Virus record (IMG/VR): IMGVR_UViG_3300048597_000118
Span: 37,170-101,169 of that record
Strand: one strand, 5' to 3'
From: a virus
DNA: 64,000 nucleotides
Each line of letters starts with the position of its first letter. Within the stretch, counting starts at the first letter, position 1. The notes under the pieces are model-generated. The model was not told where the DNA came from. It was given only the letters and a program-made list of their open reading frames with translations, and did not search any database. The translations under genes and the position numbers were made by a program. Below are positions 15,673-44,659 of the stretch, one piece after another.

Positions 15673-15824
15673 TTGACATCCTCCACTTCCCTAAAGGGAA
15701 GGGATTCCTACGAAGCAAACAGATTTAACTGAATAGCTTTTCGGTGGGTTGACGCTTCACAGGATGCCGCTACCGAAGTAGTCTTACGCTTTCCTCCACG
15801 TCCGTTTTCAGTCTCCGAACGTCC
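15673..15824 (-). ncRNA. TnpB-type omegaRNA (reRNA) scaffold overlapping a residual tnpB C-terminal tail
   Basis: 15824-15708 translates as GRSETENGRGGKRKTTSVAASCEASTHRKAIQLNLFAS*, resembling cyanobacterial TnpB C-termini that overlap the omegaRNA; followed by the RE hairpin and TCAA. Confidence 0.7.
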
Positions 15825-16829: not shown

Positions 16830-17633
16830 ATGAATCGTCTACCAGAAACTATCACTATCAGCCGTGAAGACCTTCCCTCCGGCGAGTATGATGTGATCCT
16901 TAAATGCCCGTACTTTGGAGATTGGCGTAAAGCTCGTAAACTTTACCCCAACGATATGGACTCCCAAGGTCGTCGCAAAAGCCCTGGTTATGCCGCCGAA
17001 GAACTCCTGCTCTGTCAGCAGATTGTTGATGTTGTAGACAAAGATAATCGCTCTGCTATGGGTCGCCGCCCTAAAGATGTTATTGACCGTCTTAAGTTAT
17101 TCACTATCCCAGACCGTCAAGCTCTTCTAACCATCTTTTTGGAATTGTTCTGGGTAGGTGCAGACCAGGCTAAACAAGCCCGCGATTTAGCCAATGAATT
17201 CATGGTGACTGCTGCTCTTACTTACACTATCGAAGCAGATAAAATGCCCATGGCTGGGGTCAGCGTTACCTATAATGCTGTTAACACTGGTACTCAAATG
17301 GCGGCAGACCGCCGTTATATCGGAGTGCAAGAACAAGGTTGCACCCTAGAAGAACTTCTATTTGCTACTTGTGTGGCAGCAGTAGATGGTGACCCAGTAG
17401 AGCAACCTAAAGACAGTATCAGTCTGTTAGATGAATGGACTATCTCTGATGTTCAGTTTGCTAAGTTGGTCTTTGTTAACCAATTTACTTTAGATGAAGC
17501 CGGAGAAGACCGGGCAAAGGAAGCGGGAAAGCGCTACTTGGAAAAACTTGGTTTGAGCAAGCTCGCTTCAACGCCCGCACCCAAACCCAAGCAAACCTCC
17601 AAGCCGCCGGCCAACAATGTTCAAGAATTGTAA
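16830..17633 (+). CDS. Tail assembly chaperone (gpG-like, two repeated domains)
   Basis: Immediately upstream of the giant gene; internal repeat (EELLLCQQI...PKDVIDRL / EELLFATCV...PKDSISLL); contains an in-phase slippery heptamer. Confidence 0.8.
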   Translation: MNRLPETITISREDLPSGEYDVILKCPYFGDWRKARKLYPNDMDSQGRRKSPGYAAEELLLCQQIVDVVDKDNRSAMGRRPKDVIDRLKLFTIPDRQALLTIFLELFWVGADQAKQARDLANEFMVTAALTYTIEADKMPMAGVSVTYNAVNTGTQMAADRRYIGVQEQGCTLEELLFATCVAAVDGDPVEQPKDSISLLDEWTISDVQFAKLVFVNQFTLDEAGEDRAKEAGKRYLEKLGLSKLASTPAPKPKQTSKPPANNVQEL

Positions 17634-18106: not shown

Positions 18107-18114
18107 GTTTGCCG

Positions 18115-18147
18115 AGCCCGACTCAACTAGAGCCGGGCTTCTTTTTT
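18115..18147 (+). terminator. Rho-independent terminator-like hairpin
   Basis: AGCCCG...CGGGCT followed by TCTTTTTT. Confidence 0.6.
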
Positions 18148-18194: not shown

Positions 18195-21100
18195 GTGTCA
18201 GATTTTACTTACACTTCAGACCCGGCTCTACAAAAACTTATAGAGCTTCTAAAAAACCAAGAAATAGTCCAGGCAGTTAAGGAGAAGCTTGCTGCTAGTG
18301 GACCGGCTATGACAGCCACTATCTTCTCAAGACAGTTAGCACAAGCCTTAAATGAAGTAGTAAGTGATAAAGGACTTCAAGCTGAATATAGTATCACAGT
18401 AGAGCTGGTAGACGCCTATTTAAAATCGGAGAACAGAGAAAGAGATGTTTTTCCAGAACAACAGGCACAATGGGCGCGGCTTAGATCCAACGTAGCTGGA
18501 CATTCTATAACCGCCGACTTTGTAGAAGATGTACACACTAAGCATTTAGACCCTTACAAAGCCATAAAGGACTTCTCAGATAAGTTCAAAGGCAATGTAG
18601 AGACTAAGGGGTTTGCTTCTAGCATCGGAGCCCGTGGACTAAACGTAGACCAAAGTTCTGAGCGGACGTTTACTTACTATGACGACAATGCCAGATTCCA
18701 GGGTAATAGACTAGCTGAGTCTATAGATAGTGACGGTAGGTTTAGTAGGCAACTAAAACTTACTTCTGATAGTTACGCTACCCCGCAAGGGTATATCAGT
18801 AGACCAGCTACCCAAGATTATTACAACCTATTTGCCGATAAAGAGCGGTCTGGTATGGGCTTTAGAGGCTCTATCTTCCAAGTTCAAGAGGCGGGCTTTA
18901 TGTCGGGTATAACACAGCGCACTGGCAGTACTGAGTTAGTCACCCAAAGATTATCTTCTGTACAAGTCATATCAGCTGCATATGACAAAGAGGAAGAAGC
19001 TTCCAGCCCTATGAACTTATATGGATCTAACGATGTCAGCATATATGCTTCTGAAGTCTTAGCCGAGCGTCACAAAAGACCATTAAAAATGATGGGCATA
19101 GAAATGCCCGGAGGGTCTGTACACGCTAAATTGGGTTACTGGTATAAAGAAGGTACAGCCGGCGATGTAAACGATGTGCAGTCTTTCTTCATCAGCTCTC
19201 AGAACTTAACCCATACTTTATCTCGGTCTAACACAGTAGAAGACATGCTGTTGATTAATAGACCGTCTGACGAAGCAGGGCTGTCTACTTTTAATTCTGT
19301 AGCTAAAGAATTAAAGATAGCCGCCGATGCTCTGATTAGTGTCGCCAGAGACCAAGCTCAGAATAATACTGCTATAACTAGCCTTTCTGATATATCAGCC
19401 TCTAGGAGCTTCTTCAGACGTTTTACAGACAATATAACGGCAGCAGCGGGTACAGAGGTTAACAAAGAAAACCGGACTATCTTCGCTAACCAAGAGATTA
19501 AAGGTCAGTTTAGCCGTATGTTTAAGGAAGCTGCTGAGTCTAAGTCTAACAAGCTTATCATTACACAACAGTACTTTGAGCAGTCCTTAATAGGCAGAGA
19601 AGGAGATTTTGGCTCAACATTACTATCTGACTCTGATGTTGGTTATTTACAAAGTTTGGCGTCTAGAGGCGGCATCAAAATTGGTGTGACCGGCTCTAGT
19701 ATGGGCGGCGACTCCCAAGGTCTTTTTAGTTTGTTAGATAAGTTCGAAGCTGCAAAACCTGGAAAGCTGACTGGGTCTCAGCTAAAGCGGTATAACCTGC
19801 TTAAAACATTAATTAGTGGTCAGCCTGGTCAGGAAAGTGCCTTCACCTTAATGCCGAGCCAATATCTACATAGTAAGTCTATGGCTATGTTTAGTGGCTC
19901 TGGAAGACTATTGGAGTACGCGTTGGGCTCTGCCAACTTCAGTGAAAAAGCTCTGGTGCCAGCGTCGAGGCAAGAGCCATCAGATGAATTTGGGTTAAAG
20001 ACTACAGACAACATAGAAGTAGCTGGTTTCTTTAGGACTAAAAACAATAGTCTGAGTCTGCTATCCAAAGCTGACCAACAGCGTATAAAAGACAATTACT
20101 TCTACGGCATAGGTAGATACCAAGAAGGAAAAGAGTCAGAGGAAGAGATAGACGACCCTAACGGTCGATTAATTAACAGGTATGGTCGTGATTTACGCCA
20201 CCGCTATCAAGGTGCCCAAGTACAGCAAAAAGGCAGCGCTAAATTCGTTAAGTCTGCCATAGAAATGATAGAAGGTATGGGCGGCAAAGAATATTCTGCT
20301 GAAGGGTCTTCAGATGCACTGTTCAGGTATAAAAAAGAATATATCCTCGACTCCCAGTCTGACTCTGGGTACAGATTAGTAGGGCTGAAATTAAACATAG
20401 CCCAGCCAATTTCAAGTGGCAAAGACTACTCTATTAGTCTAACCATAGGTTCAGAGTTCAAATCTATACAAACTGGTCGTGGTGGAGGGTATAAGACTGT
20501 AGAGTCGCCTATGGTCTACATCAATAAGACCCAGCGCTTTATGACTGGTGCAGTCTTTAAAAACGCCACGGATACTACCTTCCATTTCATGCGCTACAAC
20601 GAACTGGATGGAAAAATAGGTTTGGCGGCGCTCAAACCACAAGAAAGTTATGAAGCTAACTCTTTAGATGTGTTGGGTGGCTTCCTAACTACCATGCAAA
20701 CCAGCATGAATTACGAAGCTAAAGTCCGTGGTATTGCTTATACCTATGAAGCATTAGGCGCAGACATAATGAAAAAGTCCGCCGAGAGGGTAATTGCAGA
20801 AAAAGTAACTGCTTTATACCTATACTCTTCTGCTGGTGAAACACCTACAGAAACCCAAATAAGGACTGTACTCGACGCCAGACGACAAGGGCTAGGTGCT
20901 TTGTTGTCGTTGGTCCAAAAGAGTGGACGATTAGGCGACGTACTTCAAAATACACAATACGACTTCTCTGGCAATATCACTAAATCGGACATCATACCTA
21001 ATAACTGGGGTGACTCTTCCGCAGTCAGACGTGAAAGGAGAGTAGGTTTACAAAACATATTTAAAGATGTTATTCGCGACGCCAACTCTGCTAACACTCA

Positions 21101-24100
21101 AGACTTAGCAAAAAAACTAGTCAACAACTTTAATGCCGCCCTACAGAAATCCGTCGGACTTCTACCTGACGACATACGAGACTATACTTCCGGCTTCACT
21201 GGGCAATATAACGACATCATCATGCAGATATTTGCTGCCACTCCAGTAGGCATGCAGATTTATAAGGATGCTGTTAGCGCCGGTTATAGCGAATCTTACT
21301 CCAGACAAGTAGACGCTTATTCTCAACCACACACCGAAAACTATAGCCACGGTCAGTCCTTGCACTCTAAACCAGTGGTAGGTATCACTCCAGAGAATAT
21401 GGACCTATTCCGCTTAGTTTCCCCTATGTTAGGAGCTAACCCTGATGCTGTGGGCGGTAAAGTTGGTGGTTTAATCCTTAATCCTTATCCTTTAAGTCAT
21501 GGAGAACAGTTAGGTAATAGCACCGGCGGACAATATCTACGCACAGTAAGTAAGTCAGTAGGGCGTGCCCAGGTCCAACCATTTACACAACAAATAGGTG
21601 GCCTCACTAAGATTCAAGGCGGCGCCCCAGTCGTCTATAACATGCTTGGCGTGGCCAGCTCTATGCCCACACTCCAAGCTATAGACCGCCAAGGGTATAA
21701 GGAGAGGTCTGCCCAAGTCTTGTCAAAAATGGGACTCAAGGACGCGGAGGCAACTAACATAGTTAAGAGCTTAGAATCTCAAACCTTTGACCCTGTATTT
21801 GGTGGGAAAAGTAAAGAAGAAGACGAAGAAGCTAAAGAGTACGACCTGCTCTACTACTTCCCTTATGCCAAGACAGAGCAAATCATGCAACGGATGAAGA
21901 ACCTACTCTCCACCCGTCCTATGTTTGACGCTTCTAGGGAATTCATAGACTACTCTTATTCTCTAGGGCTTTTAGGTCGTTATTCTAATTACCAAATGGA
22001 AGGGGGTGATAAGAAAGACTTCTTAACCTCTCCATCTGACCTGATCGGTGGTCGGCTCTTAGATAGCATGCCAATCCAACAATTTGAATCCATAGTAGCC
22101 AGAACTGAGGCTAAATACACAGACAAGCAAAGAGAAGCAGCAACTGAATATAAAAAGATACTTAGTGACCCAAAGGCTAGTCGTGAACAAAAGATAGCTG
22201 CCGGTCGAGCATTACAGGAAATAGACCAGCCTATAATGCTCCAACTGGCTAAAGACAATGCTATTGATGTCTATGCAGTTGGCAAAGGGTATATGGGTAG
22301 TGAGCGCCCACGACTTAATATCCTTGTGGCCGGAGCTACTCAATTAGCAGACTACGGGATATATAACACTAGTTACCGTAAAGACACCTATAAATATGGG
22401 ATGAAGTTGTTAAAACCTCACCCAGTTCAAACGAATATCACTTTGAGTGGGGGGCAGATAGGTCCGGCGTCTTTACAGAGCGCAGTTCAGAAATATCTAC
22501 AACCTGGTACTGTCTTCATCGCTAGAGATACCACCATACAACACACGCAAGTAATTCAAGCCTTTAATGAGCAACTTAAGGATGCTTTAGAGGTTTCAGT
22601 TAAAGAAGTAGGTGTCACTAAAGGTCTGGAGGCAGTGAAGTTTAGTGTAGACACCAGTAGTAGTCTTACTAGACAAAGCATTAGGCAGAGTATAGTAACG
22701 GCTTTAGGGAGCGCAAATATAGACAACACTGAGATAGATGCTATATACAAAGGTGCCGTAGCTAAACTAAGGGGCGAAAACCAAGGTATTCGTGTAATAA
22801 CTGACTACAAGACCGGGCAAGTTGGGTATGTTTTGGGTCGTGGGGCTTACCAAAGCGGACGCCAAGTAGGGGAAGTATCTTCACTAAATACCACTAACGT
22901 CAAAATAGGGGATTTAGACCCTGGGGACGCCGCATTTAAGATGTGGGGTTTTATGTCTTATGACGGCGGACATGCTCAACCTCTACAAATTAGAGTGCCT
23001 GCTATTACTGGGGATGAACTTAACTCCATAAGTGTTTTAGGTGAGACTACCGTTATAGCTATGACAGGTAATACTGCCACTATAGATACCCAGTTCTACA
23101 ACGTAGAAGATTTTATGAGTGGTATGCGGGCCGGCTCTATCATTCCTAAAGGACCTATGAAGGGCGGTAAGAGAGAGTTATTCGAAGCCGCTGTTGGTCT
23201 AATAGGTCAAGAGTCTATTAACTTACTTCCGTCTACGGTAAAAGGACCTGGCGAGACTAGTATCAAAGCCGAAGATGTTTACTCTATGATCAGCCCTTCT
23301 CAAGTCAAAGCCTTTAACTTTGAGATTGGTTTGATGATGCTTGCCGATAAACAAGAGAGTGGCATCTATAAACGTCTGACTGACGCTGATACGGGCGGCG
23401 TTAACGTGGCCATGGCGCTGTCTATGCTATTCCTTAACTCCAAAGCAGATGATATTGGAGGTAAAGATAATCTGGCTATGTTATATGACCGTCTCAGTAA
23501 CACTTTATCTAGTGAGCAAAGAGATGGTAAAAGTGCTTATGGTAAGCAATATGCCGCCGCCCTACGGGCTAAAAAGTCTCTATTAAAGTTAGGGCAGACA
23601 GACTCAACTACAGCCTTTACTTCTTTTAGTAGTGCGCCAGGCTCTGCATCTTTAGCTATGTTCAGTGCTTTGGCGGGCTTTGGTAAATGGACTAGTGACT
23701 CTGAAAGTATAGAATCAGCACTTCTAAATCAAATCATTACAGCCTTAGGTACTGATAAGAAAGAGGCTGAAGCTGCTCAAAAGAGACTATCTGACGCAGC
23801 TAAAGGTCTGATGGACTATGCCTTTGCTGAAAAGTCTCGGGGTGGTGTCATTATAGAAGACTTTGAGACTAAGCCTTTAGGGCTATTGTCGTTCTTAACT
23901 AAAGCTAGTGCTGATATTTATAGAGACTTAGATAAAGAACAGTTGAGGAAAACCCGCGCCTTGGGCGAAGTTATTCTCAGCAGCAAAAGCCTATTTACCT
24001 CGCCAGAGAGTCTAATAGTTGATGTTGATGGTTTAGATGAGACTTATAAAAAATCCAGGGATTCCGTTCTGGTAGCCCTGAGTAATCTATTCTCTGTAGG

Positions 24101-27100
24101 AGAATCTACTTCTCGTAGGAAGCAAATACAAGTAGAGATGCAGCGCCGTAAGGCTTACTTGTTAGCAGGAGAAATCCATAAGATATCAGGGGGTGATATA
24201 GATGCGGCACAGCGAATACTTAATCCGACCCTAAGCGTAGACGAATTCTTAACTAGAGCAGGTATAGCACAGCAACGTAGGATTCTACCTGAAGGTATGA
24301 AGCCCCGCACAGGGTTAGAATCCCGCTTTGCTACTGTAGACCTCTGGAGCTCCATGCAGAGTATGTATGCTAAATCAGGGTCGGAACCAAGTCTAAAACA
24401 GCTGGGTGTCAGAGAGTTTAATCCTTACTTAGAAGCCATCAATCAATTAGTAGGCAAAGGTCAAACTCAAAGGTCTGTCTTAGATGACCTTATTGCTTCT
24501 ACAGGAAGTACCGCTACAGATTCTCAAAAGACGTTGCGGTCTAATTTCGAAGACACCCTCCGCAAATTAGTTGTTCGACGTAGTGCTATGGGTCCACAAC
24601 TCCTTGAAGTGCAGGAAAGATTGGAGAAACTGGGTATTACCGACTTTTCTGCTAATTCTGAATTTGGCAAGCTACTAGGTTCTTATCAAGAAGGAATAGT
24701 GGAGTCTATAGACACCTATGAGGTATCTAAGGTATCTACAGTAGACGCATTGATGGGCTTTTATAGTTCTACAGAAGCCTACGCCGGTTTAGCTGATGAG
24801 ACTATACAGAAGGCTATGCTGACACAAGCTCAACGTATGGGATACTCTTTGCCTAGTCAAAAACTAATCAGAAGCATACTAGATAAAATCAGTAAGAGCA
24901 CCCAAGATTCTGACATTACAGAAGGTGAGTACCGGGCGTTAAAAGAAGTGGAGTTGGTGTTTGAAGGTATTACGGCGGCTATTCAGCAGGCCCGCACCAT
25001 TACTCTACCAATGGAGACTAACTTCAGCAAAATTAGCACGCCGGCGGGTAGTAAAGACTCTACGGCCCTAGAAGGTCATCTTAGTCGTTCTATGACTGAG
25101 CGGCAGCTAAAACAGTATACTTATGCGCTGGAAGAGTTTGCTGATTTAACCTCCGTACAAAACGCTCTGATGAGTCTTACTAAGGCTTACTACGGCTCTA
25201 TACCAAACGCTAAACAGCGACAGTCTTTAATCAGTATGGACTTGTCTAACATCAATTCTTGGCGTTGGAATGACTTAGAACGTAATAAACAGGGCAAATT
25301 GGTTAGGTCTCAAGGTGAGGCTAAAGGTCAAACACAGGACGCTCACTCTAAACAGTTCCTATGGGATTACTTGGCTAATTACAACAGTCTTTATCGTAAT
25401 GCACTACCTGGAGAAGACAGTGAAGTCGGCTTCTCTCGCATAAGCATAGACAATTTTATTAATACGGGTAGGGCTCAAACAGATGTTATGAGCACAATGG
25501 AGCGTATTAATATCATCGCCTACGGTCCAGCTGGTAAGTCTGATGACCCTGCTGAAGAATTACAACGCCGTGCCACTAATTCAGCCACGTTTACTTTTGA
25601 TGAGCTCAGTGAAGGTATTTCACGTAAACGCACTACGGATAAACTCGTTAAATTGGCTTCTTCTGGTTTAGACCAGTATCTAGCATATATAGACAGTACC
25701 GATTTACCTGAATCAGATAAAAAGGCAGTAAGTGAGATACTAGCTAAAGAAAGAGGGCTATATAAGTCTCAAATAAACTACTTTGTCGCAGAGAGTATTA
25801 AAGGGAAAAGGTCTAAAGATGAAATTCTTGGCGATGATATATTCAGACAAGGTATAGATGACGCAGAAGTGCAGCGTATTAAACCATTTATTCCTGGAGA
25901 TAGAGGGATATTAGGTTACTTCAACTTCTTAGAAGAGTCACTAACGCCATTGAAGGAAAGCGAATCTAAGACTTGGCTGTCTACTGTTTTAAGTGGTGAT
26001 TCTGCAAGAGCTAACGCCAAACTGCGTCAAGACGAGATAGAACGACTGGCGGCGCCTGGTGGTAACATACACCAGAAAATACAACACGCCCAGGCACAAG
26101 ACCAAGGCGCTGCGTATTTAGAAGGAATGAAAAGTATATATAAGACCCTTCAAGGTATGCCTACAGGCAGGAAGTCTGTTAGCACACGAGGCAGACGTAT
26201 AAATGCACTAAAACGAAGCATTGAAAAAACACAGTTTATATCGCTCTACTCCTATGAAATAGCTTCTACTGAAGGTGGGCTACTAAGACTACAGCACCGC
26301 ACTAACATGCGCGGCGAGAAGTACAGTGAGACCGGTTTAATCTTAGGGTTAGATGTCTTAGAGAAGATGTCTCTACTATTCCAAAACAGCAGTCACGAGG
26401 CCTTGGTAGCTCAACAGGATTTGGTGACTAAGTTAGCTGCTGCTAAAAACATCATTGACCGCGTAGAAACTGGTTTAGTTAAAGGTTATCTAGGCGAAGA
26501 GGTAGATGTTAAGGCCACTGGTGTCACTCAAGAAGAATGGCAGCAGTTACGCGACCTTCAACAGGCCATGATGGCGTCCAAAATAACCGCTGTCAGTATT
26601 TTGCAGAATGAGAACAGTATTAGACAAGCCACTGGCAACCGTCTTAATATGATGGGCTCTTCTTTCATTGCCATGAATAGCTTCTTAGTAGGCGCTACTG
26701 AAGTGGCATTAGGGGCACGGTTTGATTCCGCTGCTGGTGTAACTACAGCCGGTGGGTATATGCGGTTTATGGCTAACGTAGCGCCGCGCACCAGAGATAT
26801 GGATAAATACCTTTTGGTAGACCCAGACCAACGTAAATTCCTCATTGGGCATTACAAAGAAGAGCATGACCTACAAAAACAAATAGCTGCAGCTGAAGAA
26901 ATAGGCGCTGCAGATAAAGTCCAAGCGTTGACTAATGAACTTCGTAGGTGGCAAGACTTACTCAGTATGGACCCTGAAAATCAGGTTACATCTCTAAACG
27001 AGAAGTTATTATCTATAGATGAGCAGATTGCACGGCAGAAAAATACAGTCGAATTTAAAAGCTTAGTTGACCCTGCTTCAAAGCGTGATGCAGAAGAGCG

Positions 27101-30100
27101 CCTAAATGCATTACAGAAAAAAAGAGGCATGATTAGTGATACTGCGTCAGCTATTACTAAGAGAGTGGGGAGTTATGTAGCACCTATACAAAAGACTAAA
27201 ATAAGCGAATCCCAGCTTAGCACTTTCGAAGAACTATATGGTCATCTAAAAACTATAGAGGCTCACGGTGAAAGTCAGGCTACCTTTGGTGGGTCTGAAG
27301 ATGAGAGTAAAGATAAGTTATTATCTATGCTTTCTAGACTAGAAAGCCTTATTGCTGGAGCAGAGTCTGATGAAGGTATGGATATAGCTTCTTATAGACT
27401 ATTTAAGTCAGAAGATATATTTTCGTATGTAGGCAGAGGGCAAAACGCACTTAAGAGTATTGTTTCCTCTGTTGTAGATATAACCAGCTATGAAGGCTCT
27501 AATAGTGACCAGCCTCTAGTAACGACAAAACAGAGAAGTGATGCGGTTAAGCAAACCACCGACAACATAATAAAAGAATTTTCTGATATAGACCTAAGCA
27601 TCAAACAACAATCTATGGGTCAAGACGCTACTAAGACAGCTAGAGTGTCTCAGGTCAATAAGGTAGCTGAAGCCGCCAAGATGAAAGACCTTTACTCTGA
27701 CCTATCTAAAGTCAAGGAGTCTAAACAGTATGACCGTAAAACCCTCAGTAAAGTGCTTCAAGTTCTTCGTTATAGCGGCGACCAAATCACAGATGGTGGG
27801 CTTACTGTTACAGACAGTGTTATCTCAACTATATTCTCCAGTTTTGACAGGCTAAACAAAGGCGAGTCATTAGATATCGACACTTACAGACTTTTTAATT
27901 TAGATGGTGGAGACCATAGGAAAGCCTTTGATGGATTCTTAGGTAAGATACTTACCATGTCCGAACAAGGTACTTTTACGGCTGATGAAGCTAACCAGTT
28001 ACTAGATTCAGAAGATAAAAACCACAAAAAGGCATTCAAAGACTTTTTAGATAAAGTACTAACTAAAACGAAAAAAGACCCGTCTCTAGCCGGCGATGTT
28101 TATAAGTTATTTGAAGTAGAAGGGGAAAAATATAGGAATATCTATGACCAAGGAGTTTATAACAGTTTTCTAAGTAAACTCTTAACAAAGGCTAAAAAGG
28201 AGTCCTTTGCCGCAGACCGTGCTTATCAAAAACTAGGTAAATGGCATGACTTACTCTCTGATTACGCTTTGGCCTACGCAGAAGGTGAAGGAGACTCAGG
28301 TAAGGCCCGCACTTTTACCCAAGCTGAACTCTTAGAAGCTTATGAGTCTAGCGGTAAGTCCCGCACTCTTATCGAACTAGAACTTATAACAGGTCAGACG
28401 GTAACTAGCCAAAATCGTAACGAAGTGATGGCTAAAGTGGACTCCCACTTCCTACGTTCTGATATCCTGGCTAACCGTCAAGGTATGCCTTCTTATGCCG
28501 CAGCTGGTCCAAGAGGTGTCGCCGCTGCCATTAGCTCCCTACAAGGCGTCACTATGGAAGAAATGCGTAAACGAGGTCAACTCGTTAATAGTCTTTTCAC
28601 ACCAGATGAAAGCGCCGACAATACTTTAATGATGATAAGCGCCTTCGGGTTCCAATTCATGGGATTAGGTGACTACGACGGTGACTCTTATCAAGCTGCT
28701 TTAAGCAGCGTAACTAAAGCACAAAGTACCATAGCGCGAACTAATGAAGAGTTAACTACCTTAGAAGAAAGGCTTAATCGTCTTAAAAAAGATAGGAAAC
28801 AGCAAGAAGAACGCAGAGCAATAGTAAAAACTAGCGCCGACACTGAAGAGCGTAGCAGAGTAAATAAAAGAATAGAGGAGTTAAACCAGCAGATTAGGAT
28901 TACTGAAGCCAAGCGCAGACAAGTTAAAGACTCTAATTACAGGGCTACTAGAGACCTACGGGATATTAACCGTGAGGCACGCGAGACTCAGTCTGTTAAA
29001 TCAGGGAAGGCTTATAAAGGATTGCGTTCTTATGTGTCTTCCTATCTAGCTTTACCTTCTTACCTATTTGGGGATTCAGTAACTGGTTCTGATGACACGT
29101 CTATCTATGAGTTTGGCCTTCAAGACGACGAGTTGGCGGGCACAGTTAAGCAATACAGAGACACAATTAGTGGGTATAGTGACCGGTCTACGGACTCTAC
29201 TAACTCTGTTGGTGCTTTTGCTTGGTTGAAGACAGCAAAAGGCGGTGCTGTAGCCATTGATAAGTCTGGAAAACTAGACTTTGACGTTGATGGTATACGT
29301 AAAAGCCGTGGTTCTACTGCTAGCACTATGACCATTAATAAGATGGTCGCTGCCGCCGAACAGTGGAATCAAGCCCTTATCAAAGAAAAAATACACGAGA
29401 AGATAGCGAAGAATAGCGCTTTAGATGAGGCCAAAGCTCGGCAGTCAGTAATAGAAGATATACAAAAGATGTCAGTAGATAGTTATATGAAGGAGGTTAC
29501 TGAGTTTCAGAACAGGTCTGAGGCTATATTCATGTCTATGTCTACATCAGGCAAGATATTTACTAATGTAGCTGGGAGCCAGATTAGTCCTGCGGACCTT
29601 AACTCTATCCAGTCAATTATGGGAACGACTGGTGGCGGGCTACTAGGTAAAGTCTATAACACTGTAGTGCCCAGCGCCGCCACTCAATTAACAGACTCGC
29701 TGATGAACCGTATGATGAGCAATGACTCCGTGCGGGCAGATTTCTTACGGTCAGTTAGTAACCTACAAGAGTCAGCAAGTGGATATACCTCTGTTTCTGT
29801 CTTGGGTAATACTTTAGGAAAAATAGCTGAAAGCTTAGGATCTATGACCAATGTTGGCGGCGTGCCTTGGGAACTCAGCATGGCAGATAAGGAAGCCAAG
29901 GCTTCTACTGCTTATAGGTTTATGCTGACGACTCAACAGTACCTCCGAGATGCTGCTTTGAAACCTAAAGGTAAAGTTGGTCTGGTAGAGATGGCGCGTA
30001 AATTCCGCCTAAGTGCTAGCGCCATTAGTCAAATAACAGACTTAGGTATACAAGGCATAGACGAAGATGTTCTGAGTAAGACTGTAGGCTATGACAGTCT

Positions 30101-33100
30101 GCTAAAACTTCAACCACAAGCAGCAGAAGAGGAAGTATCTAGACAGTTCCTAGATATAATCAGCCAGGACTTTTTAGGTGCCAAAGCAGGTGAAGTACTT
30201 AGTTATAGCTATGACAAGTCAAAGGCTAATACTAGCGCAGATGTGGACGCAGACATGACAGCTTTCGCCATGTTGAAGTTATTGACTGATTACACTGGTA
30301 GCCGCGCTATGACTGCATCAGAGATGATGGAGAAAGGGCATTACAGCGCTTCTCTTAAGGCTTCTAGGGATGAACTGTCTTCTAAACTAACTACTCATAG
30401 TCAGCAGGTTACAGAGTACTTAGAAAGTAAAAAAGGCACCGACAATACTCGCATAGAAGCCGCTAAACAAGAACTGAGAAACGTCGGCGTAAAACCTGAA
30501 ATGGTGGACCGTGTAGTAAAAGGCCAGAGCAATAGTTGGTACATAGACGATGACGCTTTTGTCCAAAATACCATAGCTAACCTCATAGGCAAGTTTCAGT
30601 CTCAGTTCTTAGGCGGCAACTCTGTGGCAGATGACTTTAAGTCTGTAGATCCACTCTCTACTGAGCGCACTCTCTACACCCACGGTTTAGAAGTAGAGGT
30701 TGACGAGTCTGGTGATAGTCCGACCTACAAAATAGTAAGGAGAGAAGACTCTGATAAAACTATCCGTCGGAATGCTGCATATCAAATGCAGGATAAAGTA
30801 GACGCTTATAATCGCAAGTTTAATCTGTCTGGTCAAGATGCTTTACAAGTAACCGACTTAGTAAAGACAGATGATAAAGGCAATTTTATAGACTGGGATT
30901 TAGAAACGGCATCTAGCAAGATTAAAGAAAGGGCTAAACAAGAAGCCCTCCGTAAACTAAATAAAACTTTAGGGCTTGAACACTCAGCAGAATTACAACT
31001 CTCTGCTGAAGAAGCTACTAGACTATCTTCTGGTGATATAGGCATGGCGCAAGCTGACTTACGCACTAGACTTGATGGGGTCAAAGGCGTGTCTAATCTA
31101 GATAGACTTGCCACTGAAACCGAGTCTAATGCTAAGTCTTACCTTGAAATTCTAGGTAATAAACAGTCTGAATCAAAAGCAGGTAAAGCGGCGCTCAAAC
31201 AGATAAATGAGGGTAGAGCTACTGAAGATGCATTTACTTCAGTAGACCAAGCGCGAGCCTGGTCTACTAAAGTCTTAGAAAATGAAAACAGATTACTAGC
31301 CGACTTAAATTCAATAAATGAGGCTAAGTCTGCCACTCAACAAGAGTTACAGACTATAGAGTCTCGCCGTAAAAGAGTTCAACGAGTAGATTCTACAGTT
31401 AATCAGTCCGCAGACGCATTTAAATCTTGGCAGACTACTTCAGATACCATTGATGCTCAAGTAGACTCTTTCGAGGCTACTATGCGGCAGAACATGGAGA
31501 ATAGAGTCTCTGAGTTGACCTCTAACCGTGATGCCATTGAGACGGAGGCCGAAGGTCGCAATATGAGCGTCGATGAAGTCGCTGCCACCACGTTTAGAAC
31601 TCTACAAGAGATAACTACCCGTAATCAGGCTGACGACCTTATGGATGTCTTAGTGAAGACTAAAAAGCTAAACCAAGCGGTCCAAGGAGTAGTTACTGAA
31701 GGTCAATCAGAACAGTTTGCCGCTGTTAAAGACTCTCTTATCTCAGCCAACAACTTAACTTCATTGACCTTATTAGAGTCTATGGAAATATTGGGAGGTG
31801 AGGTTACAGCCCACGCCCAAGGTATAGACTCAGCCAAGCTCAATCAGGCATCTTTAGCCCAAGCGATGTCTACCGGTCTAACTAATGTGTTAGAAGCTGT
31901 CAGGACTTATTCTGACAGTCTTAGTGATGGTAGTCAGTTTGATAACAAATTGGGCGGCGCTATCATGTCTTTCCTGTCTATGGGTGGCGTACTTCCTGAT
32001 GAAATAAGCCAGATAGTAAACCAGAATGTAGCTCAACAGGTAGGCACGACAAAAGACTATGTTGAGCAGATGCAAACAGAACAAGGTAGAACAGCCTTGG
32101 CTAATAAGCTAGCTAAGTACGGCGGTAGTGACCTAGATATCACTACTGCTGAAGGTCAAGTAGAAGCAGCTAACCGTATAGTTAGAGGACAAACAGATGA
32201 GCTTCAAACTGGCGTCCTTAAAAACTTGATGCGGGCCGGCGTTATAGATGCTATTGCTTCTGGTTCTGGCTTTACTGGACATATGTCTAAGTGGTCTGAC
32301 TTGATGCAAGACACTATTGAGTTAGGCAATATGGACCCAGCAAATTTATCAGAGTCACAGCAAAGTATTTTAGACACTGCTCGCCAGATGCCTACACCTG
32401 AATATCAATGGGGTCAGCGCCTAGAGGCCAGTCAAGAAATGGTAGATAGGTTTAACTCTGGCTTAGAAAAGCGCGGTGTAAAACAACGGATCAATGCCAA
32501 CCAACTCTCTCGGTTAGCAAACAGCGATAATACTATGACTGTTCTAGAAGAACTAGGTCTAAATAAAGATACTAAAGTGGCTACACAGTTAGGCGCTCAA
32601 CTAGAAGAGTTTAGGTCTGAGCAGCGGACAGAATCAGTCTTACAAACACCTGACACTGTACGTAATCCAGGAGTAGCGCCCTCGATGTCTACTCCTGCCG
32701 TCGAAGACTTATCTGGCGGTAATACCGGCTTGGGTTCTAGTAGACCCCAAGATATGCAAATGTTATCTATAGATAAAGAGCAGGAAATGGTACGACAAAC
32801 TCTTGCAGATGTACATCGTACAAGACATGTAAGAGAAAAAGAAGCGGAGCAAAGTAAAGCAGAGTCTGCTTTAAGACGTAACTACGGTTTCACTGAAGCG
32901 TTAAGTATCTTAGCTATACCCGCCTTGTTTGCAGCTATGCAAGGTGATATTCCGGTCACAGAACAAGTGGGCGGTTTAGTTCAGGATGTTGTGACCTCTA
33001 CTCTGACCTCAGGTACCTTTGAGCAGTCCGCTACGTCTTTAATGTTGGCTGATGGTAAGTCAGAAGAAGAGCGGGCGGCCAGACTGGCTCAAGTACGTAG

Positions 33101-33716
33101 GGCATCTGATAACCTACAGACTGCTCGTATGCGCGACTACTTCCGTTACTATGATTCTCCTACTGAAGCTTTAGCCCGTGGTGTCCTTAATGAGACCATT
33201 TATCAAGGTATGGGTCGTATAGCTGCTGGTGCAGGCACGGCCATGGATGTAGTCAGAGGTCATGGTCTAGATAAACATGGCAATGCTATTGTTGGCGAAG
33301 CTTTAACTGTAGGAGATTCTAGTTTAAGTAGGATTATTACAGAAGTAGGTGCAGGACTTTTAGGTCGTGTAGTAGGTGGTGTGCTTAGTGGTAGACCAGT
33401 TAACCATGGTTTTTACAGTGCTACCGAAGATGACTTTGCTAACGAGTTAGTGTCAGCCGCCGCATCAGCAGCGGCCCAAGTGGTGAACTACGTTGGTGAC
33501 ACTATGGAAGACCTATGGGAAGGCGACCCGGGTGAAGTTAGTCTAGATGACGGCAACCATGTCAGCATGATAGACACCGATACTGGGGAAGCTCTAACTT
33601 TCACCGTGGCTAATCCAGATAAAATTAACGTCGCTTCTGCTTTGGATGAAGATGAATACCTTCAAATCATCCATGGTGACCAAGGAGCCGTTTCTACCTA
33701 CGAAGAGCTAGCTTAA
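18195..33716 (+). CDS. Giant tape-measure-position protein with two PLD-like domains and a putative two-barrel (virion) RNA polymerase
   Basis: Follows the frameshifting chaperone. HAK...SSQNLT (~19122-19210) and HSK...GSANFS (~19869-19943); NRQGMP (~28473) then GLGDYDGDSY (DYDGD at 28671-28685); long helical/coiled-coil C-terminal third. Confidence 0.7.
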   Translation: MSDFTYTSDPALQKLIELLKNQEIVQAVKEKLAASGPAMTATIFSRQLAQALNEVVSDKGLQAEYSITVELVDAYLKSENRERDVFPEQQAQWARLRSNVAGHSITADFVEDVHTKHLDPYKAIKDFSDKFKGNVETKGFASSIGARGLNVDQSSERTFTYYDDNARFQGNRLAESIDSDGRFSRQLKLTSDSYATPQGYISRPATQDYYNLFADKERSGMGFRGSIFQVQEAGFMSGITQRTGSTELVTQRLSSVQVISAAYDKEEEASSPMNLYGSNDVSIYASEVLAERHKRPLKMMGIEMPGGSVHAKLGYWYKEGTAGDVNDVQSFFISSQNLTHTLSRSNTVEDMLLINRPSDEAGLSTFNSVAKELKIAADALISVARDQAQNNTAITSLSDISASRSFFRRFTDNITAAAGTEVNKENRTIFANQEIKGQFSRMFKEAAESKSNKLIITQQYFEQSLIGREGDFGSTLLSDSDVGYLQSLASRGGIKIGVTGSSMGGDSQGLFSLLDKFEAAKPGKLTGSQLKRYNLLKTLISGQPGQESAFTLMPSQYLHSKSMAMFSGSGRLLEYALGSANFSEKALVPASRQEPSDEFGLKTTDNIEVAGFFRTKNNSLSLLSKADQQRIKDNYFYGIGRYQEGKESEEEIDDPNGRLINRYGRDLRHRYQGAQVQQKGSAKFVKSAIEMIEGMGGKEYSAEGSSDALFRYKKEYILDSQSDSGYRLVGLKLNIAQPISSGKDYSISLTIGSEFKSIQTGRGGGYKTVESPMVYINKTQRFMTGAVFKNATDTTFHFMRYNELDGKIGLAALKPQESYEANSLDVLGGFLTTMQTSMNYEAKVRGIAYTYEALGADIMKKSAERVIAEKVTALYLYSSAGETPTETQIRTVLDARRQGLGALLSLVQKSGRLGDVLQNTQYDFSGNITKSDIIPNNWGDSSAVRRERRVGLQNIFKDVIRDANSANTQDLAKKLVNNFNAALQKSVGLLPDDIRDYTSGFTGQYNDIIMQIFAATPVGMQIYKDAVSAGYSESYSRQVDAYSQPHTENYSHGQSLHSKPVVGITPENMDLFRLVSPMLGANPDAVGGKVGGLILNPYPLSHGEQLGNSTGGQYLRTVSKSVGRAQVQPFTQQIGGLTKIQGGAPVVYNMLGVASSMPTLQAIDRQGYKERSAQVLSKMGLKDAEATNIVKSLESQTFDPVFGGKSKEEDEEAKEYDLLYYFPYAKTEQIMQRMKNLLSTRPMFDASREFIDYSYSLGLLGRYSNYQMEGGDKKDFLTSPSDLIGGRLLDSMPIQQFESIVARTEAKYTDKQREAATEYKKILSDPKASREQKIAAGRALQEIDQPIMLQLAKDNAIDVYAVGKGYMGSERPRLNILVAGATQLADYGIYNTSYRKDTYKYGMKLLKPHPVQTNITLSGGQIGPASLQSAVQKYLQPGTVFIARDTTIQHTQVIQAFNEQLKDALEVSVKEVGVTKGLEAVKFSVDTSSSLTRQSIRQSIVTALGSANIDNTEIDAIYKGAVAKLRGENQGIRVITDYKTGQVGYVLGRGAYQSGRQVGEVSSLNTTNVKIGDLDPGDAAFKMWGFMSYDGGHAQPLQIRVPAITGDELNSISVLGETTVIAMTGNTATIDTQFYNVEDFMSGMRAGSIIPKGPMKGGKRELFEAAVGLIGQESINLLPSTVKGPGETSIKAEDVYSMISPSQVKAFNFEIGLMMLADKQESGIYKRLTDADTGGVNVAMALSMLFLNSKADDIGGKDNLAMLYDRLSNTLSSEQRDGKSAYGKQYAAALRAKKSLLKLGQTDSTTAFTSFSSAPGSASLAMFSALAGFGKWTSDSESIESALLNQIITALGTDKKEAEAAQKRLSDAAKGLMDYAFAEKSRGGVIIEDFETKPLGLLSFLTKASADIYRDLDKEQLRKTRALGEVILSSKSLFTSPESLIVDVDGLDETYKKSRDSVLVALSNLFSVGESTSRRKQIQVEMQRRKAYLLAGEIHKISGGDIDAAQRILNPTLSVDEFLTRAGIAQQRRILPEGMKPRTGLESRFATVDLWSSMQSMYAKSGSEPSLKQLGVREFNPYLEAINQLVGKGQTQRSVLDDLIASTGSTATDSQKTLRSNFEDTLRKLVVRRSAMGPQLLEVQERLEKLGITDFSANSEFGKLLGSYQEGIVESIDTYEVSKVSTVDALMGFYSSTEAYAGLADETIQKAMLTQAQRMGYSLPSQKLIRSILDKISKSTQDSDITEGEYRALKEVELVFEGITAAIQQARTITLPMETNFSKISTPAGSKDSTALEGHLSRSMTERQLKQYTYALEEFADLTSVQNALMSLTKAYYGSIPNAKQRQSLISMDLSNINSWRWNDLERNKQGKLVRSQGEAKGQTQDAHSKQFLWDYLANYNSLYRNALPGEDSEVGFSRISIDNFINTGRAQTDVMSTMERINIIAYGPAGKSDDPAEELQRRATNSATFTFDELSEGISRKRTTDKLVKLASSGLDQYLAYIDSTDLPESDKKAVSEILAKERGLYKSQINYFVAESIKGKRSKDEILGDDIFRQGIDDAEVQRIKPFIPGDRGILGYFNFLEESLTPLKESESKTWLSTVLSGDSARANAKLRQDEIERLAAPGGNIHQKIQHAQAQDQGAAYLEGMKSIYKTLQGMPTGRKSVSTRGRRINALKRSIEKTQFISLYSYEIASTEGGLLRLQHRTNMRGEKYSETGLILGLDVLEKMSLLFQNSSHEALVAQQDLVTKLAAAKNIIDRVETGLVKGYLGEEVDVKATGVTQEEWQQLRDLQQAMMASKITAVSILQNENSIRQATGNRLNMMGSSFIAMNSFLVGATEVALGARFDSAAGVTTAGGYMRFMANVAPRTRDMDKYLLVDPDQRKFLIGHYKEEHDLQKQIAAAEEIGAADKVQALTNELRRWQDLLSMDPENQVTSLNEKLLSIDEQIARQKNTVEFKSLVDPASKRDAEERLNALQKKRGMISDTASAITKRVGSYVAPIQKTKISESQLSTFEELYGHLKTIEAHGESQATFGGSEDESKDKLLSMLSRLESLIAGAESDEGMDIASYRLFKSEDIFSYVGRGQNALKSIVSSVVDITSYEGSNSDQPLVTTKQRSDAVKQTTDNIIKEFSDIDLSIKQQSMGQDATKTARVSQVNKVAEAAKMKDLYSDLSKVKESKQYDRKTLSKVLQVLRYSGDQITDGGLTVTDSVISTIFSSFDRLNKGESLDIDTYRLFNLDGGDHRKAFDGFLGKILTMSEQGTFTADEANQLLDSEDKNHKKAFKDFLDKVLTKTKKDPSLAGDVYKLFEVEGEKYRNIYDQGVYNSFLSKLLTKAKKESFAADRAYQKLGKWHDLLSDYALAYAEGEGDSGKARTFTQAELLEAYESSGKSRTLIELELITGQTVTSQNRNEVMAKVDSHFLRSDILANRQGMPSYAAAGPRGVAAAISSLQGVTMEEMRKRGQLVNSLFTPDESADNTLMMISAFGFQFMGLGDYDGDSYQAALSSVTKAQSTIARTNEELTTLEERLNRLKKDRKQQEERRAIVKTSADTEERSRVNKRIEELNQQIRITEAKRRQVKDSNYRATRDLRDINREARETQSVKSGKAYKGLRSYVSSYLALPSYLFGDSVTGSDDTSIYEFGLQDDELAGTVKQYRDTISGYSDRSTDSTNSVGAFAWLKTAKGGAVAIDKSGKLDFDVDGIRKSRGSTASTMTINKMVAAAEQWNQALIKEKIHEKIAKNSALDEAKARQSVIEDIQKMSVDSYMKEVTEFQNRSEAIFMSMSTSGKIFTNVAGSQISPADLNSIQSIMGTTGGGLLGKVYNTVVPSAATQLTDSLMNRMMSNDSVRADFLRSVSNLQESASGYTSVSVLGNTLGKIAESLGSMTNVGGVPWELSMADKEAKASTAYRFMLTTQQYLRDAALKPKGKVGLVEMARKFRLSASAISQITDLGIQGIDEDVLSKTVGYDSLLKLQPQAAEEEVSRQFLDIISQDFLGAKAGEVLSYSYDKSKANTSADVDADMTAFAMLKLLTDYTGSRAMTASEMMEKGHYSASLKASRDELSSKLTTHSQQVTEYLESKKGTDNTRIEAAKQELRNVGVKPEMVDRVVKGQSNSWYIDDDAFVQNTIANLIGKFQSQFLGGNSVADDFKSVDPLSTERTLYTHGLEVEVDESGDSPTYKIVRREDSDKTIRRNAAYQMQDKVDAYNRKFNLSGQDALQVTDLVKTDDKGNFIDWDLETASSKIKERAKQEALRKLNKTLGLEHSAELQLSAEEATRLSSGDIGMAQADLRTRLDGVKGVSNLDRLATETESNAKSYLEILGNKQSESKAGKAALKQINEGRATEDAFTSVDQARAWSTKVLENENRLLADLNSINEAKSATQQELQTIESRRKRVQRVDSTVNQSADAFKSWQTTSDTIDAQVDSFEATMRQNMENRVSELTSNRDAIETEAEGRNMSVDEVAATTFRTLQEITTRNQADDLMDVLVKTKKLNQAVQGVVTEGQSEQFAAVKDSLISANNLTSLTLLESMEILGGEVTAHAQGIDSAKLNQASLAQAMSTGLTNVLEAVRTYSDSLSDGSQFDNKLGGAIMSFLSMGGVLPDEISQIVNQNVAQQVGTTKDYVEQMQTEQGRTALANKLAKYGGSDLDITTAEGQVEAANRIVRGQTDELQTGVLKNLMRAGVIDAIASGSGFTGHMSKWSDLMQDTIELGNMDPANLSESQQSILDTARQMPTPEYQWGQRLEASQEMVDRFNSGLEKRGVKQRINANQLSRLANSDNTMTVLEELGLNKDTKVATQLGAQLEEFRSEQRTESVLQTPDTVRNPGVAPSMSTPAVEDLSGGNTGLGSSRPQDMQMLSIDKEQEMVRQTLADVHRTRHVREKEAEQSKAESALRRNYGFTEALSILAIPALFAAMQGDIPVTEQVGGLVQDVVTSTLTSGTFEQSATSLMLADGKSEEERAARLAQVRRASDNLQTARMRDYFRYYDSPTEALARGVLNETIYQGMGRIAAGAGTAMDVVRGHGLDKHGNAIVGEALTVGDSSLSRIITEVGAGLLGRVVGGVLSGRPVNHGFYSATEDDFANELVSAAASAAAQVVNYVGDTMEDLWEGDPGEVSLDDGNHVSMIDTDTGEALTFTVANPDKINVASALDEDEYLQIIHGDQGAVSTYEELA

Positions 33717-33739
33717 CTTAGAACCTTAATTATTTAGTC

Positions 33740-34414
33740 ATGGCTAAAATACCCGTCGTAAATTCTCACTTACTTCACAACCAAGACTTACTAGAGGAAG
33801 ATTGGTTACCCAGAAATGACGCGCCCAAACGTTCTTGTTTTTTAAACGACTGGCTTGACCAAACCTGGACTCTACAAGAAGTGTTAGACCTGATGGCTAA
33901 GCCTAACAGCCTGGCCTGGGGTTTTGGGCACACTAGTCCTTGGCCATTAGACATTTGGTCTGAGCCGGTATTACCTTGGACTAAACAACAACAAGAATGT
34001 TTTGGTTATATAAAGGCCCGTGGTTATGTAGTGACTGCCTTAGAAAATGGTGAATATGAGCGAGTGCCGTTGGTACCAGGCACTACGGATTTAGTTGATG
34101 AAGAGTATGATGAGCCCGGCGATTATTGGTTAGTCATGGTAAATGGTAAGCTCAAACATGATGATATTAAAGCGGCTAGTGCTCCTATAGCGTATAGGTC
34201 TATAGGACTTTACGAGAGCGTTAAGTATAAAGTCACTGACCCTGTTAAGTTAGCGGCTGGTTATGATACCAGGACTAACCCTTGGTTTATGACCCATGAG
34301 TTGTCAGGTAATTTGGTATGGTTACAGCACTTAGACCCGCCGAGATATATCACCCCTAGGTTAGAAGTGGATATCAACGTTTTACTAAGGTTTAAGAAGG
34401 CTCCAGTAATATGA
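33740..34414 (+). CDS. Hypothetical tail/baseplate-region protein
   Basis: 224-aa ORF directly after the tape-measure-position gene. Confidence 0.55.
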   Translation: MAKIPVVNSHLLHNQDLLEEDWLPRNDAPKRSCFLNDWLDQTWTLQEVLDLMAKPNSLAWGFGHTSPWPLDIWSEPVLPWTKQQQECFGYIKARGYVVTALENGEYERVPLVPGTTDLVDEEYDEPGDYWLVMVNGKLKHDDIKAASAPIAYRSIGLYESVKYKVTDPVKLAAGYDTRTNPWFMTHELSGNLVWLQHLDPPRYITPRLEVDINVLLRFKKAPVI

Positions 34415-35973: not shown

Positions 35974-35978
35974 CCATA

Positions 35979-36866
35979 ATGGCTCTGAATACTATTGCAG
36001 ACACTATTAGATTAATGACCGCCGAATGGCCCATCCGTAATAACTTCGGTGAGGTCTTGGAAGACCCAGAAACTCTGGCAGACGCCACTATAGGTTGGTA
36101 TGGACCCACTTGGTTTGCTTCTTCCACTTATCTTAAAGGCGGCGTTCCTTATTACTTAGTAGACCTTGGCGACCCCAATTTAGGCGGTTATACTCCCGGC
36201 ACAAAATGTAAGGTATTTGACTACCGTTGGCGTCATGCTCTGACCATTGAGCCGATCAGTAACCGTTCTATAGACAACGTTGAAGGATATTGGTGGGGTT
36301 TTAGCCAAGCAGAGCGGGAATTAGTAGAAAATGCTGTCCACGGTAGTCGTTGGTTTCTCACTTGTAATGATGTTCTTAGTCAGTTCTTTATAGACAAAAG
36401 TATGGGTCCTGGTATGGCTCAAGCCCGTGCCAAATATATCGAAGGTCTACGCGTTAGATTAGGCGGTTCTCTAGTCTTAGCTCATGAAGCATTTATAGAC
36501 GGATATACACAAGGAGACTATTGGACTTACGTCTTGATGGATACAGGGGCCGGCGCTGTTAAAACGGCGGAAGAATTCTTTAAAGCTAAAGGACAACAAC
36601 GTTTCGTCAATAAATATAAGTCCGGCTCTCCTAGTTATGTAAGAGTGCCATTAGGTCAAGATGCCTGGGTAGTTATGACTAACGCCGCCACTGGCGAGGT
36701 CATACCTTTAGAAGTATTACCTGAAGTCCCTGGAGTGGGACCCAATCCTATTTCAGTTAATCACTGGGCTCGGGTAAGTGATTGGGGTGGTGTACATTTG
36801 GGCGGTGACCGACGAGTTAGAAAAGGCGAGCGGTTAAAGGTCTATCTCGCCGCCGCGCCAGTGTAA
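35979..36866 (+). CDS. Hypothetical protein (probably structural)
   Basis: 295-aa ORF ending the + strand tail operon. Confidence 0.55.
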   Translation: MALNTIADTIRLMTAEWPIRNNFGEVLEDPETLADATIGWYGPTWFASSTYLKGGVPYYLVDLGDPNLGGYTPGTKCKVFDYRWRHALTIEPISNRSIDNVEGYWWGFSQAERELVENAVHGSRWFLTCNDVLSQFFIDKSMGPGMAQARAKYIEGLRVRLGGSLVLAHEAFIDGYTQGDYWTYVLMDTGAGAVKTAEEFFKAKGQQRFVNKYKSGSPSYVRVPLGQDAWVVMTNAATGEVIPLEVLPEVPGVGPNPISVNHWARVSDWGGVHLGGDRRVRKGERLKVYLAAAPV

Positions 36867-42177: not shown

Positions 42178-42267
42178 ATAACTAATCTTTAACCCCCTAT
42201 ATGCCCCCATATAGGGGGGTTATTTCATGATCAACTTTACCGCTAGGACCACTAGCAGGAGATCATT

Positions 42268-42690: not shown

Positions 42691-42776
42691 AACGTAACCC
42701 CCTCTATATGCCCCCTTGGTGTATAGAGGGGGTTATTTCATGTAAACTATAGCCGGTACTACCGGCAGGAGGCTAT

Positions 42777-44572: not shown

Positions 44573-44659
44573 TCCACCCCAATTAAGTAAAACAAAAAGC
44601 CCCCAAATTAATGGGGGCTTTTTTCTTGTTCTATCTGACCGGTACGACCGGTGAAGATT

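Follow-up and report, generated by a model that had tools for sequence, protein, structure and literature searches.

The stretch analyzed here, hereafter the window, comprises 64,000 nucleotides (nt) of the viral IMG/VR record IMGVR_UViG_3300048597_000118 (positions 37,170 to 101,169) and forms the final 64 kb of a 101,169-bp contig with an estimated completeness of 68%. At positions 18195..33716, on the plus strand, it carries a giant gene, a single unbroken frame with a GTG start whose product has 5173 amino acids (aa). An initial annotation had described this open reading frame (ORF) and quoted three short motifs from its product, all of which were found where it had placed them: GMRAG...PKG, spanning residues 1643-1653 (nt 23121-23153; GMRAGSIIPKGP at residue 1643); NRQGMP at residue 3427, 65 residues ahead of the first Asp of DYDGD; and GLGDYDGDSY at residue 3490 (nt 28662). 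The start called by the Joint Genome Institute (JGI) for the closest homologue falls at the same position as that of the 5173-aa protein. About 50 nt 5' of the GTG, a GC-rich hairpin followed by a T-run was read from the sequence by eye (18114..18147, plus strand), and this terminator-like element suggests that the giant gene begins its own transcription unit. The protein contains no cysteine; Ma-LMM01 gp080 and a third giant ORF of >4659 aa, both described below, contain one and none, respectively.

The giant protein belongs to a large and highly divergent family. A word-based search returned two homologues, both giant, with lengths of 5312 and 4195 aa, and pattern scans returned 14 IMG/VR contigs (27-217 kb) and five metagenome contigs. 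We have then scanned 1.84 billion representative proteins with a HMMER profile of residues 3380-4060, which recovered 100 proteins (clusters at 50% identity), 92 of them at E <= 1e-10 and nearly all 3000-5400 aa long. Nothing was obtained when pieces of the window were compared by blastn and tblastn with 50,697 phage records (tblastn with the giant protein missed gp080 and its orthologues), and no relative was found among GTDB genome contigs, nor did we find natural fragments of 268-1196 aa from the family. Conservation is concentrated in residues 100-850, 1000-1950, 2200-2450, 2600-2850, 3400-4050 and 4900-5173, these blocks being separated by helical spacers that vary in length and show little conservation.

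At identities of 15-30%, a set of positions remained invariant, namely FPYxKTEQxxQRxKN, D1386, N1391, R1645, K1652, G1653, P1654, K1705, D2720, R3428, G3430, G-D-x-D-G-D (3492-3497), GxxGxxLLGKxYN and QQxxRDxxxKxK. The initial annotation had let its proposal depend on the conservation of DYDGD, and this expectation was borne out: G-D-x-D-G-D is kept in 97/97 homologues covering this part, even where identity is as low as 15-20%. The residue between the first two Asp is aromatic in 89 of the 97 (F in 43, Y in 40, W in 6), and 58-65 residues ahead of the Asp triad the whole family has an invariant Arg (R-x-G-x-P; R-S-P in gp080). When the 5173-aa sequence was shuffled, D.DGD appeared in 9% of the shuffles, and D.DGD together with R.{1,3}P 30-80 residues upstream in 1.3%. 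The motif alone, in one sequence, is thus weak evidence, and it is the conservation in 97/97 homologues that makes it more than chance. By inspection, the companion motifs of the Toprim, HAD and metallophosphoesterase folds were absent among the invariant residues, and these folds were set aside as candidates for the acidic motif.

Along the chain, the first recognizable unit resembles the phospholipase D (PLD) superfamily (19062..20054, plus strand, as are all features of the gene). It carries two HxK(x)nG[ST]xN half-sites in one chain, which are invariant in the family (H310, K312, Q336, N337 and E349; H559, K561 and N581), in the more general form HxK...[GS][ST]xN. The PLDc_2 profile matched gp080 and one homologue (L008) below its gathering score (E 3e-4 and 4.7e-4, respectively) and gave no match with the window's own protein. 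The match to NucT was weak (E 0.025), and ESM features gave a lead to PLDc_2 and RE_NgoFVII. Weak as these matches are, they agree with one another and, together with the alignments, indicate a phosphodiesterase or nuclease module of PLD type at the N-terminus.

Further along, alignment and block hidden Markov models (HMMs) delimited a block (21762..22574) with the basic motif FPYxKTEQxxQRxKNLLSxRP (K1226, Q1229, R1233, K1235, N1236 and R1241) and D1386/N1391. The next block in the alignment (22872..23369), which holds the possible beta-like GMRAG...PKG of the initial annotation and would be the candidate for its beta-like barrel, is beta-rich and ends in GxR(x5-10)KGP, with R1645, K1652, G1653, P1654 and K1705 invariant. 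A middle block (26112..26774), seen in the alignment and in a structural model, combines a beta-hairpin, G-L-D (D2720) and RxxxGxR...G...S (R2810, R2816, G2821, S2829 and G2840). R-Q-G-M-P follows at 28476..28490, with R3428 and G3430 invariant and P3432 nearly so (the gp080 equivalent being R-S-P), and then the family's invariant Asp triad in G-D-Y-D-G-D (residues 3492-3497, 28668..28685). Directly after the triad, AlphaFold predicted a long antiparallel coiled-coil hairpin with a predicted local distance difference test score (pLDDT) >90 (28683..29048), in line with the long helical regions that the initial annotation had noted; VIA-align matched it to generic coiled coils only. Two invariant motifs, GxxGxxLLGKxYNxxxP (3810-3826) and QQxLRDAxLKPK (3914-3925), were located by alignment and block HMM at 29622..29969, and the conserved C-terminal block (32862..33713) contains, at residues 4903-4921 and 5047-5065, two helices of moderate hydrophobicity.

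The giant gene stands beside the portal gene (14052..15539, minus strand) and diverges from it. The portal, the prohead protease (11513-12682), the major capsid protein (10178-11473) and a 1199-aa tail sheath (1964-5563) were identified by PHROG matches and are all encoded on the minus strand, as are, beyond the window, a probable tube protein, a hub/spike resembling VgrG, a baseplate wedge resembling gp6, fibre-like proteins and a terminase that carries an HNH insertion. Only two genes separate the portal from the giant gene. One encodes an HNH endonuclease (15824-16384, minus strand), is absent from this place in most relatives and looks like a mobile insertion; the other encodes a conserved 267-aa protein (16830..17633, plus strand) and in relatives always lies between portal and giant gene. 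On the far side, three co-oriented genes for proteins of 224, 520 and 295 aa (33740..36866, plus strand) adjoin the giant gene in relatives too. The order capsid, protease, portal, 267-aa gene, giant gene and then homologues of the 224-, 520- and 295-aa genes was shared by 16 related loci, and phage Ma-LMM01 has the same layout. The linkage of the giant gene to the portal and head genes is strict across relatives of only ~25% identity. In two relatives, L031 (IMGVR_UViG_2510065010_000001, 195 kb, classed as a provirus by IMG/VR) and L012, the giant gene is not divergent and lies on the same strand as, and ahead of, the 267-aa gene, portal, protease and capsid genes. A second HNH endonuclease gene of the window is found at 44944-45759 (minus strand).

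Outside the window, a terminase-like ORF of 1466 aa (L018:14666-19066, minus strand) shows similarity to terminase large subunits in residues 562-951, HNH matches at about residues 1128-1270 and another endonuclease match in residues 198-446. This ORF may represent a terminase into which homing-type elements have been inserted or to which they have been fused.

Relatives of the capsid protein, at ~30% identity, were found only in Microcystis phages (Ma-LMM01, MaMV-DC, -DH01, -DL01/02 and -CH01/02) and in Microcoleus phage My-WqHQDG. Together with the sheath gene, this agreed with the earlier view of a contractile-tailed, probably cyanobacterial phage: the restriction of capsid relatives to these phages supports the host guess, and the sequence comparisons supported that the window phage is a relative of contractile-tailed cyanophages.

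It was through the capsid protein first, and then through block HMMs, that the giant protein was linked to cultured phages. Ma-LMM01 gp080 is a 3562-aa "hypothetical protein" whose gene diverges from the gp083-gp086-gp091 module (capsid and sheath). The HMMs of five separate family blocks all matched it (E = 6e-37, 3e-21, 7e-13, 1.5e-20 and 8e-44), the first value being that of the block with the FPYxKTEQ basic motif and the last that of the block with the two motifs downstream of the Asp triad. In addition, RSPPPG...NLGDFDGDTF occurs in gp080, as does the canonical HKD motif HxKxxxxD(x6)GTxN. The giant gene was found in all eight Fukuivirus records and in My-WqHQDG, the MaMV-DH01 orthologue being ORF102 (3562 aa). 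Judged by these profile matches, gp080 and its orthologues are members of the giant-protein family and its first link to cultured phages, which makes virion proteomics, rifampicin experiments and biochemistry feasible in cultured Microcystis phages. All the orthologues in Fukuivirus and My-WqHQDG are annotated as hypothetical, and a literature search returned no published function for them.

The initial annotation had assigned the protein to the tape-measure position and proposed a tape measure fused to a virion RNA polymerase (RNAP). The precedent that it named is genuine: gp96 of phage P23-45, a tape measure of 5002 aa, bears a two-barrel RNAP with DFDGD at its N-terminus (Chaban et al. 2024, PMC10770324). 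Under the proposal, the window protein would lie in the tail lumen, determine the length of the tail and bring the polymerase into the cell. The helical low-complexity spacers and the C-terminal hydrophobic helices of the window protein would suit such a role. The ESM features of residues 3330-4060 were nearest to tape-measure clusters, with scores of 0.83-0.86, which are below the level at which they would count as more than a lead. Moreover, we found no recognizable tape measure in the interval from the probable tube gene to the 748-aa hub/spike of VgrG type (L019:10309-17764, minus strand; contig 29309-36764). This hub/spike has a weak DUF2345 match, and a 614-aa protein encoded there begins like a gpV/gp5 OB-fold spike.

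The gene order spoke otherwise. In the window phage, the 16 related loci and Ma-LMM01, the giant gene belongs to the head module and is not found between tube/chaperone and hub; since it lies on the strand opposite the tail genes and beside the portal, it is not in the tape-measure slot, and the proposed fusion was left unsupported, every relative examined having the gene in the head module. The tail length extrapolated from 0.15 nm per residue also failed in a relative, the 3562 aa of the MaMV-DH01 protein predicting 534 nm for a tail of 230-260 nm (PMC9927357), so that the protein is not a simple ruler. Many invariant polar residues are spread along its whole length, unlike in ruler proteins, and Pfam and PHROGs gave no match to a tape-measure family. 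A third giant ORF of >4659 aa (L018:2-13978, contig bases 2-13978, minus strand), outside the window and rich in Ala, Gly, Ser and Leu, lies downstream of the terminase gene and is cut short by the end of the contig. This ORF is possibly the better tape-measure candidate, or else another cargo protein. Altogether, we regard it as very improbable that the 5173-aa protein is a true tape measure, with or without an embedded polymerase.

We have then considered the Asp triad itself. In RNAPs of the two-barrel (double-psi beta-barrel) class, the triad comes from one barrel and two basic residues come from the other (PMC7824862). The DbDGD metal-binding motif required of the class is present in the family, and its G-D-aromatic-D-G-D form is that of P23-45 gp96 (DFDGD) and of gp64 (DYDGD), the second, non-virion RNAP of this phage; outside the motif, gp96 and gp64 are unlike other RNAPs (PMC10770324). 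The upstream Arg motif, R-S-P in gp080, has counterparts in the R-N-P and R-R-P found ~45-50 residues upstream in gp96 and gp64, respectively. Furthermore, the invariant R/K pair after the beta-rich domain (R1645 and K1652) would fit the basic-residue pair of the second barrel, which in the class is N-terminal to the first. It is by these motifs only that the family would belong to the class, and we put forward tentatively, as a possibility short of even odds, that the Asp-triad module is a very divergent single-chain two-barrel RNAP.

Several observations weigh against a polymerase. The block with the basic pair lies 826-2226 residues ahead of the Asp triad in the different homologues, and in two-barrel RNAPs the barrels are not known to lie more than a few hundred residues apart. 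The 9% of shuffles with D.DGD applies to a protein of this length, and acidic loops of the D.DGD kind also bind Ca2+. Profile searches were equally unhelpful to it. With the whole protein searched in three pieces, Pfam and PHROGs gave zero matches, and no match recurred when the middle-to-motif region of 16 members was searched against Pfam at E <= 10. Among PDB sequences, HMMER profiles made from three regions (the one around the motif, the basic-pair block and residues 3380-4060) found coiled-coil or chance matches only. Aligned by hhalign to gp96 (1-1200), gp64, the mini virion RNAP (mini-vRNAP) of phage N4 and a second giant ORF of the window, the five family blocks gave probabilities <5% throughout; against the P23-45 and N4 proteins the motif alone was aligned, with 13-41 columns around it in the case of P23-45. 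PF00623 had no match in five related genomes. The authors describing MaMV-DH01 state that its genome is without an RNAP (PMC9927357), and our literature search returned no record of a family protein in virions.

Structure prediction pointed the same way, with low confidence at the decisive place. We have obtained two AlphaFold models, one of 1200 residues of the shortest homologue (L007) including both candidate barrels (30 sequences, mean pLDDT 62) and one of window residues 3327-4060 (45 sequences, mean pLDDT 64.6). In the first, seven strands precede the R...KGP motif (pLDDT 54-67), and the region of the Asp triad (pLDDT <50) has two short strands only and no barrel. The second is all-alpha, with RQGMP and GDYDGD in coil at pLDDT <50 and again no barrel. 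A model lacking barrels had been named in the initial annotation as grounds for giving up the polymerase, and nominally this is what both models gave; because the motif region has a pLDDT <50, we do not take it as a refutation. The comparison with known RNAPs that had been proposed likewise brought no support: Foldseek against the PDB, which could have shown the bridge helix and trigger loop that follow the triad barrel in the class, gave no match at E <= 1e-3 with either of these low-confidence models, VIA-align returned generic helical hairpins and coiled coils only, and neither program matched the models to 6VR4, 2J7N or any RNAP.

These results lend some weight to an alternative in which the giant protein is packaged and ejected and its GDxDGD module is no polymerase. 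The motif would then be a Ca2+/Mg2+ loop serving another activity (nuclease, phosphatase, glycosyl transfer or nucleotidyl transfer by another fold) or structure, and the protein would serve to take over the host, protect the DNA or form a channel, its main enzyme being the PLD-like module. In favor of this are the all-alpha models around the motif and the failure of structural and profile searches to link it to any polymerase. In addition, no domain other than the PLD-type module is supported by database matches, and the promoters of Ma-LMM01 look sigma70-like (see below). On the other hand, G-D-aromatic-D-G-D with an Arg ~60 residues upstream fits the two-barrel signature better than it fits generic Ca2+ loops, the searches found no alternative fold or family either, and the low pLDDT leaves room for a barrel in the models. 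We consider a non-polymerase module possible, if on the doubtful side.

A polymerase of the other architecture, the right-hand (T7/N4-like) type of N4 gp50, would read the chain differently, taking G-L-D at 2720 as motif A, the R2810...R2816 helix as motif B and GDYDGD as motif C. The size and predicted virion role of the protein resemble those of the N4 vRNAP (3500 aa), the model places GLD after a beta-hairpin and the R...R motif in a helix, and in the shortest homologue ~300 residues separate the Asp of GLD from the Asp triad, a spacing similar to that between motifs A and C in T7 RNAP. Nevertheless, the hhalign probability of the five family blocks against the N4 mini-vRNAP was <= 0.2%, and the fold searches matched no T7-like polymerase. 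PF00940 gave no match in five related genomes, in a search that missed all controls too. We give a right-hand polymerase very little credence.

Whichever activity resides in the Asp-triad module, the gene position, the size and the precedent of other phages argue that the giant protein is probably a packaged and ejected multi-domain protein. It could instead be an intracellular protein outside the virion, for instance a replication, transcription or defence-evasion factory, whose gene merely lies beside the head genes. The literature searched contained no proteomic record of its packaging, and the gene appears to form its own transcription unit after the terminator-like hairpin, as such a protein might. 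Against this stand the strict linkage to portal and head genes across relatives at ~25% identity, and the lack of cysteine, extreme size and C-terminal hydrophobic helices, which would be typical of ejected proteins. An intracellular role therefore seems improbable to us.

The window holds a second giant ORF of 3452 aa (48452-58810, plus strand), in which TRSP is followed after 65 residues by KGDSDGDG at about residue 2119. Residues 2970-3137 of its product form a Pif1/RecD-type helicase (AAA_19, AAA_30 and PIF1). No similarity was detected between the 3452-aa and 5173-aa proteins. Homologues of the central region of the former lie inside giant ORFs (4243, 4195 and 2341 aa) of three of five related, nearly complete genomes, and none was found in cultured phages. 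The pattern TG-N9-RCCGST occurs at 18 sites in the window against 5.5 expected, a count reached in 0/100 shuffles, and 11 of its copies lie on the plus strand in 41991-48185, among short ORFs just upstream of the 3452-aa ORF. The pattern looks like a promoter of a non-sigma70 kind. The second giant ORF and the TG-N9-RCCGST motif fit a transcription system of the phage's own and are not proof of one.

Taken as a whole, the explanation that we favor, at about even odds, is a multi-domain giant cargo protein of the head/portal module in a freshwater cyanobacterial myovirus lineage. The protein would be a "polyvalent" cargo like N4 gp50 or the crAss-like gp66, carried by the virion and ejected together with the DNA. 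It would combine a PLD-type (HKD-like) module, several conserved blocks with many invariant Lys, Arg and Asn, an R-x-(G)-x-P...G-D-[F/Y/W]-D-G-D module followed by the coiled-coil hairpin and two invariant basic motifs, and hydrophobic C-terminal helices. The most plausible reading of the Asp triad is that it binds Mg2+ in a center of nucleotidyl transfer, and the leading specific candidate would be a very divergent single-chain two-barrel RNAP transcribing the first phage genes.

Among the viruses of bloom-forming, toxic Microcystis, phages of the Ma-LMM01 type are the main ones in culture. They are described as having three temporal gene classes and no known switch, being without RNA polymerase and without sigma factor (PMC5780444, PMC9927357). 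The promoters predicted for Ma-LMM01 are sigma70-like in all temporal classes and, as the authors themselves remark, do not explain the temporal switch (PMC5780444). The conserved giant protein, encoded in the virion gene module and equipped with an Asp triad of polymerase type, offers a testable explanation for this switch. In its most extended form, which we regard as speculative and somewhat unlikely, the family including gp080 would be a new, structurally very divergent lineage of virion-delivered two-barrel RNAPs, each lying within a polyvalent protein of 3-5 kaa in contractile-tailed cyanophages and accompanied by a helicase-fused polymerase (the 3452-aa ORF) reading TG-N9-RCCGST promoters, and Microcystis phages would have a two-stage transcription programme of their own. 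If the polymerase reading is true, injected two-barrel RNAPs reach contractile-tailed cyanophages, beyond the podovirus-like crAss phages and a Thermus siphovirus, with a lineage that has diverged too far for current structure prediction to recognize. If it is refuted, the family remains a large unexplained multi-enzyme cargo protein with a PLD-type module.

The closest known systems include the proteins of cultured cyanophages. Ma-LMM01 gp080 and the orthologues of MaMV-DC, -DH01, -DL and -CH and of My-WqHQDG share the motifs of the window protein and its position divergent from the portal; the Ma-LMM01-type orthologues have 3562 aa as opposed to 5173 aa, and the similarity is at the profile level only. 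The PLD-superfamily nucleases (Nuc/NucT and NgoFVII-type) resemble the N-terminal module only, by the two HxK...GSxN half-sites per chain, and the window protein, unlike gp080, lacks the Asp of HxKxxxxD.

For the putative polymerase, one parallel is P23-45 gp96, a giant phage protein with D-[F/Y]-D-G-D after R-x-P and without detectable RNAP similarity outside the motif. This siphovirus protein occupies the tape-measure slot, has a metallopeptidase domain and bears its RNAP within the first ~1100 residues, whereas the window protein belongs to a myovirus head module and has the motif two thirds along the chain, a PLD-like N-terminus and no predicted barrel. P23-45 also encodes a second, unrelated-looking RNAP, for which the 3452-aa ORF with TRSP...GDSDGDG is the candidate counterpart in the window. 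With phi14:2 gp66 (PDB 6VR4), QDE-1 and YonO, the window protein shares large size, a DbDGD-type Asp triad and conserved basic residues upstream. Its family's spacing between basic pair and triad is far above that known for these enzymes, and its size is at least twice that of gp66. Its presumed delivery by the virion would be a further likeness to gp66. Finally, N4 gp50 (3500 aa) is likewise a giant with an enzymatic core between long non-catalytic regions; it is the T7-like right-hand polymerase of a podovirus, with no profile similarity to the window family, and the packaging of the window protein is presumed.

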